From: Chiloscyllium plagiosum
Taxonomy: Eukaryota
Reading direction: 5' to 3'
Assembly: GCF_004010195.1 (NCBI RefSeq)
Contig: NC_057718.1
Location: forward strand, 40,192,101 to 40,256,100
Length of the DNA: 64,000 nt
In this document: positions 6,781-52,836 of the stretch, one piece after another
Numbering within the stretch: position 1 is the first letter of the stretch
How the letters are laid out: each line of letters begins with the position of its first letter
Made by a program: the position numbers and the translations under genes
Notes under the pieces: generated by a model
The model's database searches: none
What the model saw: the letters and a program-made list of their open reading frames with translations, nothing else
What the model was told of the DNA's origin: nothing

Positions 6781-7292
6781 TCATACAGCACAGAAACAGA
6801 TCCTTCTGTCCAACTTGTCTATGCTGACCAAGTTTCCCAAACTAAACTAGCCTCACTTGCCTGTATTTGACCCATATCACATCTAATCCTTTCTTATTCA
6901 TGTACTTGTCCAGATGTCTTTTAGGTGCCTGTAACTGCATCTACCACTTCCCCTGGCAATTCATTCTAAACTGGAGCAGGAAAATCATTCCTGATGAAGG
7001 GCTTTTACCCAAAACATTGATTTTCCTGCTCATCGAATGCTGCCTGACCTGCTGTGCTTTTCCAGCACCATTCTAATCTAGACTCTGGTTTCCAGCATCT
7101 GCAGTTCTTGTTTTTACCTAATTCATTCCACACTCGAATCAACCAGTGTGTGAAAAAGATCCCTCTCAAGTCCCTTTTAAATCTTAATCCCCTCACCTTA
7201 AAAATATGCCCTCTAGTTTTGAACTCCCCTACCCTCCATTCCCTGTATCTAAGCCCCTCATGATTTTGCAAATCTTTGGAGAGAAAACAACA
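6781..7292 (-). mobile_element. CR1 3' fragment split by a Penelope-like insertion
   Basis: KTRGHIFKVRGLRFKRDLRGIFFTHWLIRVWNEL. Confidence 0.75.
6967..7119 (+). mobile_element. Penelope-like terminal remnant with decayed hammerhead, inserted in a CR1 3' fragment
   Basis: CATTC-CTGATGA-A-GGGC-TTTT-ACCC-AAAAC; 9-bp TSD AATTCATTC (6958-6966, 7120-7128). Confidence 0.72.
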
Positions 7293-10790: not shown

Positions 10791-11858
10791 CCATTATAAT
10801 AATGGTGCTTCATAAAATAGAAAAAAAACTGCGTTGATGTACGTACTACTAGTTTTAATTTTACCATAACATATTAAAACTCCCAAATGCCAGTAAGAAA
10901 AGTTAAAGGGTTGATGATGTGTTAGATTAATTGCATTTTAATGGTATCACTTATATACCCTTTTATAGAAGAATTCATTGATTTCATTATACATATCCTG
11001 GCATGTATCAAGCTAAAAAATAGCTCAACAAACACTTCGTTCGAAACATCATGTGCATTGTTTGATCACGTAGGGCTTAAAATTCCCTCCCATGATTGTA
11101 ACACATTATCATGGAATGTGTTATTCTAAAGAATTAATTTTACTCCTTAGTTTGTTTAAGTAAAAATCTAGTTACTATTTGAAGAAACAGCTCAACTCAC
11201 TACCAGCAAATTCTTGAATCTCTTATCAAAGATTGGTACTGTTATATCAATCAGCTAACAATGCTTGTCCCTCTCTTGTTCCAGTTTTCACAGCTTAGTA
11301 TCAAACTTGGCTTTTAATGTCCCTGAAATATGAATCACCACATCCAGACTGTAGGAACTTTCATCACCATTGACGCAAATTTCTTTCTGGGATCTATTTC
11401 ATTTATTTTGCTGAACTGTTTTTACATTTGAACTTGGGTCTGATTATCTGACATTATAGTCATATTTAAGACTTACTATCTGTGAAAAAGATGTGGCTGT
11501 ATAATTTTATTTTCTCTGGGGTCTCAATTGAGATTCTTATTCAAAAAAGTTTCTCCTATTACTCCAAGTCATTCAGGATGCCATCCAAACATGTTAAAAC
11601 CAAATGTGTGATGGACAGTCAAATGAAAAGGCTAACAACTTTGCAAAGTATTCTTGTCCCTTTTATCAATGACTTGTTACAAATTACCATTTTCTACAAA
11701 TAAATATGTATGATAAATGATAATCTGTTTTAAACTGTTGATAACACTGTGTTTCTGTCATAGTTCAGCTTCAACAACAAAAGGAACAAATTCTTTGTCA
11801 TGATTGTGGAAGATTAAATTCACCTTGAAAAAAACTTTTAGGAAAACAAGAGAACAGC

Positions 11859-11938
11859 AGTGTGCATCAGGTGTAACAGCAACTCCATTTGGACGGAACT
11901 GGCTTCCAGTGGAGCTGCTGTTACTTTCGATGGGCACT
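11859..11938 (+). ncRNA. MIR194: pre-miR-194 hairpin; mature 5p 11872-11893, star about 11906-11927
   Basis: TGTAACAGCAACTCCATTTGGA differs by 1 nt from canonical UGUAACAGCAACUCCAUGUGGA; complementary arm CCAGTGGAGCTGCTGTTACTTT; basal stem AGTGTGCATC/GATGGGCACT. Confidence 0.95.
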
Positions 11939-12027: not shown

Positions 12028-12113
12028 GGTGTACAGGAGTATGACCTATGAATTGACAGCCAGTGCAATTACAGATTTGCCTGTCAGTTCTATAGGCCAC
12101 TATCCTGTCCACT
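12028..12113 (+). ncRNA. MIR192/MIR215: pre-miR-192/215 family hairpin; mature 5p 12041-12061, star about 12080-12101
   Basis: ATGACCTATGAATTGACAGCC; complementary arm CCTGTCAGTTCTATAGGCCACT; basal stem GTGTACAGGA/TCCTGTCCAC; 90 nt downstream of miR-194. Confidence 0.95.
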
Positions 12114-14719: not shown

Positions 14720-15029
14720 ATAAATAAGGAAGATGGCGCCAATTTTCAGGATTAAGTGAGAAAGATTTACAAGTAACTAGCACACATTTCATAAACAAAA
14801 ACAGATGTTGCTGGAAAAGCTCAACAGGTCTGGCAGCTTCTGTGAAGGGAAATCAGATCTGGGGAAGGGTCACCGGACCCAAAACGTTAACACTGATTTC
14901 TCTTCACAGATGCTGCCAGACCTGTTAAGCTTTTCCAGCAACATCTGTTTCTGTTTATGAAATGTGTGCTAGTTACTTGTAAATCTTTCTCACTTAATCC
15001 TGAAAATTAGCACTATCTTCCTTATTTAT
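14720..15029. repeat. 310-bp inverted repeat centred on a Penelope-like terminus
   Basis: 137-bp arms 14720-14856 / 14893-15029 with 7 mismatches by my count; loop holds CTGGGGA-A-GGGTC-ACCG-GACCC-AAAACGTT. Confidence 0.9.
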
Positions 15030-16056: not shown

Positions 16057-16164
16057 AAATCAGAAACCAAAACAGAAATTGCTGGAAAGACTCAGAAGGT
16101 CTGGCAGCATCTGTGAAGAGAAATCAGAGTTAACATATCAGTTCCAGGGACCCTTCTTCAGAAC
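16057..16164 (-). mobile_element. Penelope-like terminal remnant with decayed hammerhead
   Basis: Minus strand GTT-CTGAAGA-A-GGGTC-CCTG-GAACT-GATATGTT-AAC plus the shared GATGCTGCCAGACC tail. Confidence 0.65.
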
Positions 16165-30069: not shown

Positions 30070-30224
30070 TTAGGCGAGAATGAGGACTGCAGATGCTAGA
30101 GATTAGAGTCGCGAGTGTGGTGCCAGAAAAGTACAGCAGGTCAGGCAGAATCCGAGGAGCAGGAAAATCCTGCTCCTCAGATGCTGCCTGACCTGCTGTG
30201 CTTTTCCAGCACCACACTCTTGAA
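30070..30224. mobile_element. Fold-back Penelope-like tail remnant, hammerhead core deleted, inserted in a LINE
   Basis: Hairpin centred on GAGGAGCAGGA-AAA-TCCTGCTCCTC; TSD TGAAGTA(G/T)GTAT (30058-30069, 30225-30236). Confidence 0.72.
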
Positions 30225-37226: not shown

Positions 37227-37434
37227 AAATAAAAACCGAAAGAACTGCGGATGCTGTAAATCAGAAACAAAACAGAAATTGCTAGAAAAGCTCAGCATCT
37301 GGCAGCATCTGAGAAGAGAAACTAGAGTTAACGTTTCGGGTCAAGGGACCCTTCCTCAGAAAGGTTAACTCTGATCTCTTTCCACGGATGCTGCCAGACC
37401 TGCTGAGTTTTTCCAGCAATTTCTGTTTTTGCCC
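37227..37434. mobile_element. Fold-back Penelope-like remnant inserted in a CR1
   Basis: Inverted arms around a hammerhead core; imperfect 12-bp TSD TTTATCTTCACT / TTTATCCCCACT (37215-37226, 37435-37446). Confidence 0.75.
37327..37361 (-). ncRNA. Minimal hammerhead motif with intact core and GUU triplet
   Basis: Minus strand TT-CTGAGGA-A-GGGTC-CCTT-GACCC-GAAAC-GTT-AAC; perfect 5-bp stem II; stem I truncated to 2 bp. Confidence 0.7.
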
Positions 37435-40030: not shown

Positions 40031-40375
40031 ACCTTGACAAAGTTAGTAAGAGAGGAATCCTGGCTGATTATTGTCCTCCAAGTCAACAAACATAAAGCAG
40101 AATTTCAGCATCCTTCCAGCAACCAAACAAGTATCAACTAGTGATTTGAACCATTAACACTCATCTTAAGTTAACTGGTGGGACATACAGTTTGTCAAGG
40201 TAACTGATAATTACTGAAGGATTGAAAGCAACTGTTCACTTGCTGTTCAAATGTCAACCTAGATAAAGTAGTATTGTCAGGCTGTTCACTCACAGTATTA
40301 GAAATGCTTAACATATACTTAAAAATGTGTTGCTGGAAAAGTGCAGCAGGTCAGGCAGCATAAAAGGAGAAGGAG

Positions 40376-40411
40376 AATCGACGTTTCGGGCATAAGCCCT
40401 TCTTCAGGAAT
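40376..40411 (-). ncRNA. Minimal type-I hammerhead motif, mirror copy, sense to IARS2 pre-mRNA
   Basis: Exact reverse complement of 40645-40680. Confidence 0.75.
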
Positions 40412-40644
40412 GAGGAGGGTGTGCCAAGCAGGCTAAGATAAAAGGTAGGGAAGAGGGACTTGGGGGACGGGCATTGGGAATGCGATAGGTAGAAGGAGGT
40501 TAAGGTGAGGGTGATAGGCCAGAGACCCCCTCTCCAGCCTATCTCCCTCACCTTAACCTCCTTCTACCTATCGCATTCCCAACGCCCCTCCCCCAAGTCC
40601 CTCCTCCCAATCTTTTATCTTAGCCTGCTTGGCACACCCTCCTC

Positions 40645-40680
40645 ATTCCTGAAGAAGGGCTTATGCCCGAAACGTCGATT
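40645..40680 (+). ncRNA. Minimal type-I hammerhead ribozyme motif (predicted cleavage after 40676)
   Basis: ATTC-CTGAAGA-A-GGGC-TTAT-GCCC-GAAAC-GTC-GATT: core intact, 4-bp stem II, palindromic ACGU stem III, weak stem I. Confidence 0.75.
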
Positions 40681-40951
40681 CTCCTTCTCCTTTGATGCTG
40701 CCTGACCTGCTGCGCTTTTCCAGCAACACATTTTTAAGCTCTGATCCCCAGCATCTGCTGTCCTCACTTTCTCCTTTACTTAACATATAGCCTTTATATA
40801 AAAGGCAGTGCATAACAAAGCACCAACCACTCTCCATTCTACCTATATTTTTCCCTAGATTTGATACACCGTTATTTAATGAGCTGCATCCCCAAGCTGA
40901 ATCTGAGCCAAAACTCCTACAGCGAACAATACTAAATTTGTGACACTCTAC

Positions 40952-44145: not shown

Positions 44146-44370
44146 TGGAGAAAGTGAGGACTGCAGAGTCTGGAGATCAGAGTCAAAAAGTGTTGTGTTG
44201 GAAAAGCACAGTGGGTCAGGCAGCATCCAAGGAGCAGGAGAGGCGATGTTTCAAGCATAAGTTCTTTATCAGGAATGTTGGGGATGAAAAGCTTATGCTT
44301 GAAACGTGGACTCTCCTGCTCCTCAGATGCTGCCTGACCCGCTGTGCTTTTCCAGCACCGCACTTTTTGA
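44146..44370. mobile_element. Fold-back Penelope-like remnant with decayed hammerhead motifs
   Basis: Inverted arms; TSD CAGTTGG(G/A)TGCT (44134-44145, 44371-44382); stem II AAGC-TTAT-GCTT before GAAAC. Confidence 0.78.
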
Positions 44371-45832: not shown

Positions 45833-46635
45833 AAAAACTGAAAGAACTGTGAATGCTGGAATGCAGAAACAAAAATAGAAATTATAGATGGTGTAATTTC
45901 TATCCATGTACCTCCTTCCTCCTCAGTATCCAAGGACCCAAACACACCTTCAAGGTGGAGCAGTGCTTTAAGTGCACTGCATAATCTAGTCTATTGCATT
46001 TGCTGCTCACAATGTGGTCTCCTCTACATTGGGGAAACAAAAGTTTAGACTGGGTGACTGCTTTGCAGAACACCTAGTTCTGCCCGCAAAAAAGGCCCTG
46101 AGCCTCCACCTGCCTGCCACTTCAATACACCATTGTGTTCTCTGGCCAACATCTCTGTCTCAGGTTTGCTGTAGTGCTCCAGCGAAGGTCAGTGCAAGTT
46201 GGAAGAACAACACCAAATTTTTCGCTTGCGACCCTGTAACCTTCTGGACTCAACAAGTACAATAACTTTAAGGCTTGAACTGCCCCATGTCTTTACTCTA
46301 ACCCCAACACACCAGGCCTTACTGTCACATAGTCTGCCATTGCACACAACCTATTGTTAGCAACTAACAGTCCCCAGTAATAGCTATTTACACTCCGAAC
46401 AAGATCGTTATCCACTCTGTAGTCTGTCCAATTGTTCTTCTTTCTCTTTGGGCTTTATCCCAACCTAGAATTTACTCCTTACCGCCTCATCCAACCCTAT
46501 CTTCTCCATATAAAACAACATTTCCTAGCTACCATCAGTTCTAAGGAAGAGTCACTCAACCTGAAACGTTAACTTTAATTCTCTCCATAGATGCTGCCAG
46601 ACCTGCTGAGCTTTTCCAGCAATTTCTGTTTTTGT
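45833..46635 (+). mobile_element. Penelope-like element 3' fragment: GIY-YIG domain, 3' UTR, decayed hammerhead, short inverted tail at the 5' end
   Basis: NLVYCICCSQCGLLYIGETK (45983-46042), frameshift, then RLGDCFAEHL; AGTT-CTAAGGA...GAAACGTT-AACT at 46537-46574; 14-bp TSD TTCATT(A/C)AAGGCAT (45819-45832, 46636-46649). Confidence 0.88.
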
Positions 46636-46874
46636 TTCATTCAAGGCATGTTTATTATCAGGAATACTGATTAAACAATATTGTCTGGTCAGTTCCAATT
46701 GCCATGTTCACCCGAGCATATCCCTTTTTATGGAAAATGAACAAACTCATCATGACCAATTAAATTTTGCAATTGTCTTTCAAACAACTTTTCCCTTTCT
46801 CTGATACTTTTTAATCTCATTCATTACATTATAAGAATGATTTCCTTGATATTTCTTTTCGAAAGCAGCATCCA

Positions 46875-49454: not shown

Positions 49455-49770
49455 ATATTAGGGCATGCGCGCAGCCGCGGAGTGACAGGCGGCTCGGCTC
49501 TGCACTTGGTAGCTTCCTTGATCTTCTTTCAGCCACTGGGTGGTATATTTTCCTCGATTGTGCAATTTATTTTCTCGTTGCTCTGCTGCAAACCATGTCG
49601 TCCGCGAGTCCGGCTTTTCTGATGCGGCTTATGGCATCGACCTTTTCCATTGCGGAGAAGGCGCAGACCATAGTCCAGCAGGTGATGAGTGGAGGAGACC
49701 TGGGCATTGTGGAGAAGGTGGGTTTGTGCAAGGACAGGCCCGTACTCTGATGTTGTACTTGCTCGACTTC
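49455..49770 (+). promoter_or_regulatory. CpG-enriched patch at the BPNT1 5' end with an NRF1-like GCATGCGC (49463-49470)
   Basis: Local CpG enrichment upstream of and within the first coding exon; motif match by eye only. Confidence 0.45.
49595..49717 (+). CDS. BPNT1: BPNT1 first coding exon
   Basis: [47 protein letters not shown]|gtgggt; 123 nt; in a CpG-rich patch. Confidence 0.93.
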
Positions 49771-50965
49771 AGCAACTGTTGATCAGGGCAGTTACAGATT
49801 TCAGCAACAACTTTCATTTCCCAACTGGAGAAAGTTCAGTTGCGTGCATGTCCGTAATGCTTTATTTTTTTTTCTCTCTTATCTCTATTGTACTTTTGGA
49901 CAGGGTTTTTTTTTACAATCTGTTCCTGCCATGCTTACTGTTATCACACCAGATATTACGATTGTGTTTGGAGTGGCGTTAAATCGAACTTGCATTTACA
50001 TTAACCCCTCATTTACATTTCACACATTAATTTATTTGAAAATGGCAGCACGATTCAATGTGCAGCCTCTCACTTTGTGTAAAATTCCTTAACTGGTTCT
50101 TAGCAAAACAAGTAAAGCAGTGTTGAGTGGTGTCTAATTGCAATTGATCGCTCTTGATTTGATGCAGCTTAGTTTTTTAAACCGGTAATTTAACAGAATT
50201 AAACAAAAAACTTGTTTTTTCCAAGCTAGACCTTGCTCTGACCTTTGGCATGCACCAATACATGCTGTGAAATTCCTTGTACTGTAGATATATGTAGTGA
50301 CAAGCATTCTGGAGTGAATCACTAGATATCCAGTCACCTTGTGTTTTGCTGATAAAGGAGAAAAACATGCGAGAAAAAACAATCGTGCATTATTGCCTCG
50401 GTCTCTACATTTATTTTTGAATTATGTTTTGTTTTCCTGAAGGCCTTCACTCCTTTTAAGATACACTTTTGGGGCACTGATGTGTTTTTCTGCCTAGTGC
50501 CCATTCTGCGTGAGCCTGAACTGTGGTTGGAAGCAGGTTAACCAACTATGGAGGACATAACAGAGGAACCCAGCCTTCCTACCTGATGTCCACAGACTTT
50601 GAATTTTCCTGCAATGAGTGCTGAGTCTAGTTGTAGCTCCTAAGATGCTGCCCTGACTGAGATCAGCAACTTGGTGCAATCAAAGGAATCAATACCTGGG
50701 ACTTTCTGGCTTGTAAGAATAATTTTAAGATGTTTTGAATTATATAGCTTGGGGAGATATCCATTATGTAATGCTGCCTGCCAGTTCTACAACTGCCATA
50801 AAAATACATAACCAAATCTTTGAATTTTTTGTATAATTACATGCTTTACTTCATAATGTATTGCATGTCTAAAGTTCGTAGTAATTTATAAATCTTTGCA
50901 TAGTTATCCAATGGCAAAGTGTAGAATTATTAATATTTGCATAATGTCTGTCATTGGATTGATTT

Positions 50966-51319
50966 AAAAGCAAATTACTGCGGATGCTGGAATCTGAAAC
51001 CAAAAGAGAAAATGCTGGAAACTCTCAGCAGTTCTGGCAGCATCTGTAAGGAGAAAAAAGAGCTGATGTTTCGAGTCTAACTGACCCTTTGTCAAAGCTG
51101 CATTTTCTCTTTTGGTTTCAGATTCCAGCATCCGCAGTTTTTATCCAGTGTTTAACCCACTGCCACCTCTCTTGCAGGAATACCTACCCTGAAGAATTAC
51201 TGCTCTTCTCTCCGACAGAGCTTTGACAAAGGGTCAGTTAGACTCGAAACGTCAGGTCTTTTCTCTCCTTACAGATGCTGCCAGACCTGCTGAGATTTTC
51301 CAGCATTTTCTCTTTTGGT
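50966..51319. mobile_element. Rearranged fold-back Penelope-like remnant with two variant hammerhead motifs
   Basis: Perfect 13-bp TSD ATTGGATTGATTT (50953-50965, 51320-51332); inverted copies of the ...GATGCTGCCAGACCTGCTGAG...TCCAGCA tail. Confidence 0.82.
51217..51259 (+). ncRNA. Hammerhead motif with U3-A8 variant core, sense to BPNT1 pre-mRNA
   Basis: AGAGCT-TTGACAA-A-GGGTC-AGTTA-GACTC-GAAAC-GTC-AGGTCT; second copy on the minus strand at 51059-51099. Confidence 0.7.
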
Positions 51320-52584
51320 ATTGGATTGATTTTCTTGACACTTTATTTTTTATTTCTTTGTGTATATGTAGCAGCCAAGGCTGTTTCAAGCATGTTGCAC
51401 TTGACACTTTGGAAAATTGTTTTCCACGTGAATGAATTTGAGAGTATTTTTAAAAATCTTATTTTTCTTTTGTTCCAGTGGTTGCAGCTTTTCTTGTGGA
51501 ATAAAGTTTTTTTGGGGTTGAAAATGCATCCTATAATGCATGACACCAAGTTTGCAGTATGGCTAATTGGTCAATTCTATGTCTGGCTTTCATTTCTTTG
51601 TATATCATTTCTCATGAGAGATTTACAAATGTTTTCTGCTGGTCATCTGGCAAGTTTTGAAAATTCAGTTACCAAATGGTTATCTGTAAGATTCTTGCTA
51701 GAGAGAGACTGACTTCAAATCTTGCTCCATAGAGTCACATTGAGGCCATAGCTTATAATAACATCAAAATAGTTTGCATGTGAAATATTAGTGGTAATTT
51801 AATTTGTTATCATTGAAAAGTGAGAAAAAAGTCCATGAGGGAAGTGTGTCCTCTAAATTTTTAAAATACTAATAATTGACCTCATTTGATGCTGCAAACA
51901 TAAGTGTATTTTTTTCTATTCAGCCTGTTAAGGGTTGCAATCACATTGCTCTAGAGCAAGTGGGACTTTAACCCAGGTCTCTTAATCCAGAGGTAGGAAC
52001 ATAACCATTGTACCACAAGAGTCCTATATATATTGGAATAATTTGGAGCACCTATTGAGAAATCTTCCCTTTGTTCCACATCATCTGTTTTCTCTCAACA
52101 TAAATGTCGTCCTTCGTGTTTTTGCATAATTTTTGTAAATTTTCTTTGCACCCTTTCCAAGGCTTTGATGTACCTCTGAGTCCTTGTCACTTCTCTAACT
52201 GAGATCTCACAAATAATTTATAAAGGTTTTGCCAGAGTAAGTAAGAAGAAACTGTGTCAACGAGCAGGCAGCTAAATCATAGATTTAAACTAAATGGCAG
52301 AAGAACCAGAGGGGAGCTGGAACAAAATTTTAAAGGAGCGAGTTGTTATAATTAGGAATACTGCCTTAATAGAAATTGGATATATATTTAATTAGGAAAA
52401 TGCAGGGCAATGGGGAAAGAATTGCTGGGGAGAGGAGAAATGAGTTTTGAAAATTTAGCTAATTCAGTTTAATTTCTTTGGTTCAAGTTAGTAACCCGTA
52501 CACATACTGCCCTGTCCCAATAACATGGCGTAGATTGTGAACTTGTATAGGGACTAGCTGTCATGGAACATATTACAAGTAAGT

Positions 52585-52684
52585 AATACAGAAAATGCTG
52601 GAGAAACTCAGCAAGTCAGGCAGCATCTGTGAAAAGAGAAACAAAATTAATATTTCGCATCCAGTCTGACTGTTCTTCAGAACT
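52585..52684 (-). mobile_element. Old Penelope-like terminal remnant about 50 nt upstream of BPNT1 exon 2
   Basis: Minus strand AGTT-CTGAAGA...GAAATATT-AATT plus the shared tail. Confidence 0.6.
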
Positions 52685-52731: not shown

Positions 52732-52836
52732 ACTGGAGCCAATGATCTACAAACAAAAGCTGATCGATTGGTGCAGATAAGCATCTGTTCATCATTGGCC
52801 CGTAAATTCCCCAAACTAACTATAATTGGAGAGGAG
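52732..52836 (+). CDS. BPNT1: BPNT1 coding exon 2
   Basis: [35 protein letters not shown]|gtaagg; 105 nt. Confidence 0.97.

Follow-up and report, generated by a model that had tools for sequence, protein, structure and literature searches.

Two hammerhead-like motifs lie in a small insertion within the window, by which we mean the whole 64,000-nucleotide stretch of Chiloscyllium plagiosum DNA analysed here, and both have U3-A8 in the catalytic core in place of C3-G8. The question raised by this locus is whether the double change reflects selection for ribozyme function in the parent element or a chance pair of substitutions. With moderate confidence, we favour the former. The two motifs are damaged copies of a minimal hammerhead that heads the terminal repeat of an abundant Penelope-like element (PLE) family, and the parent core would have changed from C3-G8 to U3-A8, likely under selection for a ribozyme that works only as a dimer.

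The insertion was 354 bp long (50966-51319), with an exact 13-bp duplication on both sides (50953-50965 on the left and 51320-51332 on the right), which confirmed that the element is bounded by a target-site duplication (TSD). Its layout was mapped on L128, a near full-length copy. An inverted complete pseudo-LTR (pLTR) occupied 50966-51099 on the minus strand, running from +1, the first base of stem I at 51099, to the end of a tail of ~33 nt, with 94% identity over 135 nt to the 3′ pLTR of L128. It was followed on the plus strand by an element fragment (51100-51218) made up of the 3′ part of a pLTR, the tail, and ~80 nt from the start of the body, abutting the next pLTR; over 124 nt, this fragment had 89.5% identity with the 5′ portion of L128, and the same sequence was present 3′ of the pLTR in L020. 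The last part was a direct pLTR without tail (51219-51319, plus strand), which ended at the inner 3′ end site (+101).

The minimal hammerhead of the minus strand was located at 51061-51099, with U3 at 51095, A8 at 51090, and the predicted cut after 51065. That of the plus strand was located at 51219-51257, with the 5′ strand of stem I at 51219-51222, U3 at 51223, A8 at 51228, stem II at 51231-51245, the ACGU palindrome at 51249-51252, and the predicted cut after 51253. As the sequence-only reading had stated, both copies read TTGACAA-A-GGGTC-AGTTA-GACTC-GAAAC (51223-51250 on the plus strand, 51095-51068 on the minus strand), and its claim of one lesion per copy held as well, since each copy differed from the intact family copy L160 by exactly one change over 41 nt. 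The change in the minus copy was G16.2>A at 51067, a CpG change that turned GUC into AUC, and the change in the plus copy was C>G at 51256 on the 3′ strand of stem I. The 6-bp stem I that had been assembled from the two copies was rejected. The parent stem is a 4-bp palindrome, AGCU/AGCU, and the extra AG before AGCT in the plus copy does not belong to it because it is the end of the joined body fragment, as the same sequence in L020 showed; copies that keep the UTR have a T-run there, with T at -1 in 55/62.

The insertion lies in an intron of BPNT1, between two plus-strand coding exons with approximate boundaries of 49595-49717 (phmmer E=3e-6 to 3'(2'),5'-bisphosphate nucleotidase, PDB 1jp4) and 52732-52836 (phmmer E=2e-13 to PDB 1jp4), and its plus copy is on the strand of BPNT1. 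In the host pre-mRNA, the sense and antisense copies, each of them damaged, were predicted to fold together into a single long hairpin (-199.6 kcal/mol, z=-23), so that they are very likely inert passengers of the intron. Elsewhere in the window, the mir-194 and mir-192/215 precursor cluster identified by Rfam (11858-11937 and 12033-12108, plus strand) marked the DNA as vertebrate. At least nine further PLE pLTR stubs, several of them arranged as inverted pairs, were also observed in the window and belonged to two C3-G8 families, named B and C (7037-7105, 14793-14956, 16058-16129, 30126-30211, 37240-37429, 40331-40725, 44196-44357, 46547-46639, and 52590-52644).

Judged by the sequence of longer copies, the motif of the U3-A8 family (family A) is the opening of the pLTR of a PLE that is putatively of the Neptune type. 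Besides this pLTR and a 3′ UTR, the near full-length copies L128 and L139 contained a broken reverse transcriptase (RT) ORF, a CX4CXXC linker, and a GIY-YIG domain. In L139, the linker read CNRKRCNTC and the GIY-YIG domain VYCI...LYIGET, with a match to Pfam PF01541 at E=5e-4 and 20.7 bits, below the curated cut-off of 22.6 bits. The PLE-type RT motifs DKG and YIDD were read in L128, and the Atlas neighbours (0.93-0.97) carried RVT_1 or HTH_animal. The RT of the element gave no match in Pfam or PDB, and the assignment to Neptune rests on the linker and the vertebrate host. The organization of the copies was also that of Neptune-type elements, with pLTRs, an optional tail of 30-40 nt, an inverted 5′ copy, and a TSD. 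An inverted arm preceded 87/211 copies with an intact +1. Twelve of the 62 copies with host-like upstream DNA had a resolved TSD, and their 3′ ends were at +96 to +104 (8/12), +133 to +135 (3/12), or +148 (1/12), which gave two 3′ end sites ~33 nt apart. Non-LTR retrozymes, which are head-to-tail units of 170-400 nt running from cut site to cut site with no ORF, were rejected as the parent, as the copies here are dispersed pLTR stubs and ORF fragments starting at stem I and not at the cut site.

Two further observations were made on the structure of the copies. A pLTR followed by an ORF fragment of variable length and a second pLTR restarting at stem I was seen in L130, L132, L134, L136, L140, L143, and L146, as well as at 51100-51219 of the window; this layout is consistent with template jumps once the enzyme reaches the 5′ end of the RNA. 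In L128 (1750-1200, minus strand; reference positions ~2400-2840), the zinc-linker region was expanded to a ~41-bp tandem array that ran into an assembly gap.

U3-A8 is the state of the master element and the consensus of family A, and TTGACAA is not private to this locus. Genome-wide, the exact 28-mer was found 1,499 times with U3-A8 and only 4 times with C3-G8; both single-change forms were rare against U3-A8 (82 for C3-A8 and 12 for U3-G8), and the reversed-sequence control gave 0 matches. When stem I was required to be intact and CpG decay was allowed, U3 was present in 1,905 copies and C3 in 28 (26 C3-A8 and 2 C3-G8), a level of C3 expected from neutral decay. Moreover, 13/26 of these C3-A8 copies and 1/2 of these C3-G8 copies had U3 in the inverted arm of their own insertion, so that C3 in them was secondary, having arisen at or after insertion. 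A sample of 95 copies, selected solely on a downstream 39-mer and taken from the first 100 listed of its 2,262 matches, contained 66 that span the core, and 61 of these were U3-A8. In the control families, the first 100 of 323 matches to family C were 86 C3-G8, 8 U3-G8, 6 C3-A8, and 0 U3-A8, and family B was C3-G8 in 48/51 copies and U3-A8 in none. Family A comprised about two thousand near-identical copies in the genome and was uniform, 25/28 copies being 2.4-5.7% from the majority. Public data under two other organism labels also carried the family with its 5′ edge, and positions 3 and 8 were unchanged among the matches listed (40 rows, with 74 more beyond them).

A C3-A8 intermediate subfamily was considered and rejected, since 13/26 copies have U3 in the inverted arm and, of 20 C3-A8 loci inspected among the 82, only 3 keep an intact AGCT before C, which indicated that the count of 82 was inflated by junctions. 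Separate U3-A8 subfamilies with other loops were rejected too, the 91 matches being mostly single loop changes within the same family. The C3-A8 copies with intact stem I in the set L297-L324 were concentrated at head-to-head inversion junctions, and in 15/28 the core was reached by an adjacent inverted arm, which would fit a change of the base beside the tip of the AGCT palindrome during fold-back integration or hairpin repair.

Structurally, the parent motif combines the 4-bp stem I with a helix II of 5 bp (GGGUC/GACUC), which contains one G-U pair and G10.1-C11.1 and is preceded by an unpaired A after A9. Stem III (GAAAC-GUC) has no loop, a feature that the sequence-only reading had passed over, and its ACGU palindrome is its own reverse complement; a single motif therefore cannot close the active junction. 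The majority core of the family consists of U3-A8, G12, A13, A14, A15.1, and the N-U-H triplet GUC. In the predicted monomer fold, G5-A6-C7 paired with the GUC triplet to give an inactive shape (-10.0 vs -8.5 kcal/mol). The motif possesses the features of the minimal type I hammerhead (min-HHR), namely a core with a Watson-Crick 3-8 pair, a helix I of 4-5 bp, a helix II, and a palindromic helix III, and it is located as a min-HHR is, in pLTRs flanking the RT-EN ORF and sense to this ORF (L128, L139, and L127). The features of canonical monomer-active hammerheads, a closed helix III, contacts between loops I and II, and an Rfam match, were absent. In terms of sequence and predicted fold, the motif is a minimal hammerhead of the dimer type and is likely to be self-cutting. 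The expectation that searches of the CUGANGA type would miss it was borne out in that the Rfam hammerhead models found none in the window at the gathering score and none in L160, L147, and L079 at E<=10, but the C3-G8 relatives were missed equally, which attributes the miss to the minimal fold and not to U3-A8.

The 5′ ends of the copies clustered at the motif. Among the 95 sampled copies, 60 started within -8 to 0 of the core (29 of them precisely at the opening A of stem I), 13 extended into the UTR, 19 started inside the motif, and 3 started at the cut site. Upstream of this edge, TATAAA started at -31 in three family A copies and at -33 in a fourth, and TATA-like hexamers were present at -29 to -34 in six relatives, giving a total of 10 copies in four sequence groups; the TATA-like box lying 29-34 nt 5′ of stem I was noted in L160 (1621-1652), L016, L128, L072, L079, L085, L092, and L093. 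Several C3-G8 relatives had TCAGTT, an initiator-like word, at the first base of stem I. The TATA spacing and the pile-up of copy ends suggest that transcription begins at stem I and that genomic copies are templated by uncut RNA. No signature of a cap-derived extra G was found at the 5′ junctions (G at -1 in 13/62, and in 1/12 TSD-resolved copies), and so the putative start site rests on the TATA spacing and the end pile-up. The C3-G8 families behaved alike: 40/81 copies of family B started at stem I and 2 at the cut, and in family C, whose sample of 18 includes two family A stubs, 6/18 started at stem I and 1 at the cut. Since the C3-G8 families show the same pattern, the use of uncut template neither proves nor disproves the activity of U3-A8.

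Data from other sources were also compared with this edge. Loose ends at the first base of stem I were found in 63 and 12 public contigs under two organism labels and in 17 RNA reads. In one polyA single-cell run, 366 reads were placed with no pile of ends, the library being of a type that cannot show cleavage ends, and in a second run none were placed. RNA reads over the 3′ UTR of L160 (1380-1620, run X17) were almost all from one strand (depth 8-43 vs 0-1), unlike those over the pLTR, and may reflect transcription of the element itself in that organism.

The direction of the swap was indicated by the relatives of family A. The other hammerhead families in the genome are C3-G8, and their stems I and II differ in a paired fashion, as read by eye and with no summary statistics from a cross-family alignment that left out an unrelated row and a one-base-shifted row. 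Between families, stems I and II covary and the core and both CpGs are kept; the same two CpGs had decayed in 23/65 and 31/65 inserted copies. A very close sister insertion was found as three segmental duplicates (L147, L148, and L149, at 7.256 Mb of contig C49 and on two unplaced contigs), which were 91-92% alike including their flanks. On an otherwise family A background, L147 is C3-G8 and L148 is C3-A8, the latter as predicted by CpG decay of G8. L147 and L148 shared 9 differences from the family A majority in 230 columns (L149 was outside that alignment). Polarity was read from 25 columns in which at least 4/5 outgroup copies agree against family A; the sister had the outgroup base at -1 and 3 in both L147 and L148, at 8 and in one UTR column in L147 alone, and in none of the other 21 columns. 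The three duplicates are thus a candidate relic of the pre-swap parent, and because the related families and this very close sister are C3-G8, U3-A8 is probably derived from C3-G8 in a compensatory manner. The simplest reading of these columns would place the swap on a very short branch that immediately preceded the amplification of family A.

The weight of this evidence is set by the history of a single master. The earlier caveat that the two local copies are not independent extends to the whole family, as the high counts stem from the copying of one master and amount to a single evolutionary event. Of the two changes, G8>A occurred at a CpG and hence was cheap. With that cheap change taken as given, C3>T would be expected among 2-9 other changes in ~230 columns with a probability of 0.006-0.027, a rough and post hoc figure, and this one-event estimate favours selection as judged from sequence. 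The short time since the C3-G8 sister (9 differences/230 columns) could mean that the rest of the motif is intact merely for lack of decay time, and the C3-G8 state of the sister could also be mimicked by a short tract converted from a C3-G8 family. An endonuclease tree for the sister gave a star (23 rows, bootstrap not settled; L175 and L197 had two matches each, of which the later one was kept). The proposal of selection for ribozyme function in the parent is supported by the U3-A8 consensus and by the polarity, which fits a compensatory change, and is weakened by the single event behind the counts, the ease of G8>A at a CpG, and the origin of the genomic copies from uncut RNA.

In the explanation that we favour, the 3′ UTR of an upstream copy would supply the TATA promoter, and transcription would begin with the first A of stem I. 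A hammerhead on its own would be inactive, and two of them, either the 5′ repeat and the 3′ repeat of a single RNA or one from each of two RNAs, would pair via their ACGU palindromes and, perhaps aided by the protein of the element, cut after GUC at +35. The reverse transcriptase would start at either internal site (+~100 or +~134) and copy uncut RNA back to +1, where it would jump or fold back to produce an inverted-plus-direct insertion such as that in the window. Most likely the swap would have begun with CpG decay of G8>A and been rescued by C3>U, the order being conjectural. A bolder version can be entertained only tentatively: a compensatory core swap would have been almost caught in the act, with the C3-G8 ancestor surviving as one insertion and U3-A8 having made thousands of copies, and with a ribozyme at +1 of a TATA-driven transcript whose dimer-only cut strips the cap and the first 35 bases, thereby acting as a switch between RNA that is copied (uncut) and RNA that is processed or translated.

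The double change could also have arisen in a dead ribozyme, an explanation that we regard as unlikely but worth weighing, in which the hammerhead was dispensable, G8>A occurred at the CpG, C3>T arose on that short branch by coincidence, and a single master was then copied. Copying from uncut RNA (60/95 starts at stem I and 3/95 at the cut site) speaks for it, as do the dispensability of cleavage for insertion of an anole element in vitro (PMC11167929), the success of Naiad PLEs without canonical hammerheads (PMC8557442), and a third C>T on the same branch, at -1, which has no pairing role. The uncut-template pattern, however, is common to the C3-G8 families B and C and is not peculiar to family A, Schistosoma PLEs have the same swap (PMC4209133), and the second change among ~230 columns would have had to strike the partner base with the pairing-restoring letter, for which the estimate given above is low.

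It is also conceivable, but quite improbable, that retention of the motif reflects a non-catalytic role, as an initiator or 5′ structure or as a fold recognised by the protein of the element, with the 3-8 pair serving for shape. The start of the motif at the inferred +1 behind a TATA-like box, the inactive monomer shape predicted above, and the room left by Cervera and de la Pena for functions besides cleavage (PMC4209133) agree with such a role; the 3-8 pair, G12, A13, A14, and the N-U-H triplet, however, are features of a catalytic core and are all kept across families, and the related anole motif cuts with protein and requires the 3-8 pair (PMC11167929). Somewhat less improbable, yet still doubtful, is the idea that the 5′ pile-up marks not a transcription start but either a splice acceptor or a stop of the reverse transcriptase at the U-run, which would alter the processing model and leave the identity of the motif as it is. 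Directly at stem I, a pyrimidine tract does precede an AG, an intron of Drosophila Penelope ends at the 5′ end of helix I (PMC4209133), and the cap-G signature was missing. Against this, the upstream junctions are heterogeneous (host DNA, inverted arms, and many body positions) rather than one exon, the copies retain the AG that splicing would remove (29/95 end exactly at that A), T at -1 is rare outside UTR-bearing copies (15/149), and the end position is unchanged in families that lack a long U-run. The compensatory swap in a dimer-only hammerhead remains the reading that we prefer.

U3-A8 in PLE hammerheads is already in print (2014), and family A is a clean new example and not a new mechanism. 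That U3-A8 is a tolerated natural variant, as the sequence-only reading had it, is borne out by Schistosoma PLEs (PMC4209133) and by natural U3-A8 hammerheads stated to be active in vitro, with citation of Przybilski and Hammann 2007 (Perreault 2011, PMC3088659). The latter show the same core covariation and are not known to be tied to PLEs; the motif of family A has no closed helix III and requires a partner. Minimal PLE hammerheads are reported to be inactive as monomers and to cut weakly as dimers (PMC4209133). PLE hammerheads are nearly universal, yet they cut poorly and are dispensable for insertion in vitro. A dated and polarised compensatory core change would provide independent sequence evidence for selection on catalysis in the master lineage; the local insertion itself is very likely inert.

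For the anole Poseidon element PAc, hammerhead cleavage was unneeded for insertion in vitro, and no RNA-seq reads ended at the cut site (Frangieh et al. 2024, PMC11167929). PAc resembles family A in its pLTR hammerhead, in two internal 3′ end sites bounding a tail, and in uncut RNA as the main template; the uncut template proposed here fits the anole finding that the main substrate is RNA that has not been processed, and the 3′ ends of the family (+96 to +104 and +133 to +135) match the two internal RT start sites of the anole element (PMC11167929). PAc differs in being C3-G8, in belonging to the Poseidon clade, in having an ORF that starts inside the hammerhead, and in having a measured, protein-assisted activity (PMC11167929). 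With the Neptune EN+ PLEs (Arkhipova 2006, via Craig et al. 2021, PMC8557442), family A shares the DKG RT, a CX2-5CXXC linker, a C-terminal GIY-YIG, partial tandems, an adjacent inverted copy, and a 30-40 nt tail, and the inverted-plus-direct layout with this optional tail is a described PLE pattern (PMC8557442, PMC3846280). The TATA box 31 nt upstream of the hammerhead sets it apart from the Neptune PLEs described there (PMC8557442); Drosophila Penelope was reported to be TATA-less (PMC2377424), and a rotifer pLTR has a putative TATA and initiator (PMC3846280).

The closest counterpart is the Cercyon PLE of Schistosoma mansoni, whose hammerheads are U3-A8 with ~1,300 matches (Cervera and de la Pena 2014, PMC4209133; two rows in the supplement). 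Both have a type I minimal motif in the pLTR with U3-A8, a 4-bp helix I, an unpaired base between 9 and 10.1, G10.1-C11.1, and a palindromic loop-less helix III, and in Cercyon, as here, copies are mostly solo, with pairs on opposite strands 100-700 bp apart (PMC4209133). In the 2014 alignment, the 11 vertebrate rows were all C3-G8, and none was a cartilaginous fish (PMC4209133). The literature search, partial in coverage and hence a weak blank, found no report of the motif in sharks or of U3-A8 in vertebrate PLEs. Unlike Cercyon, family A is a Neptune-type element of a vertebrate host with a 5-bp helix II, it is very uniform compared with the heterogeneous Schistosoma set (PMC4209133), and a near-identical C3-G8 sister survives beside it. 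New in this work are an example from a vertebrate, a C3-G8 sister that has survived, and the spacing of the TATA box, and the family offers a natural C3-G8 and U3-A8 pair, otherwise identical across the motif, with which a simple direct comparison is possible.
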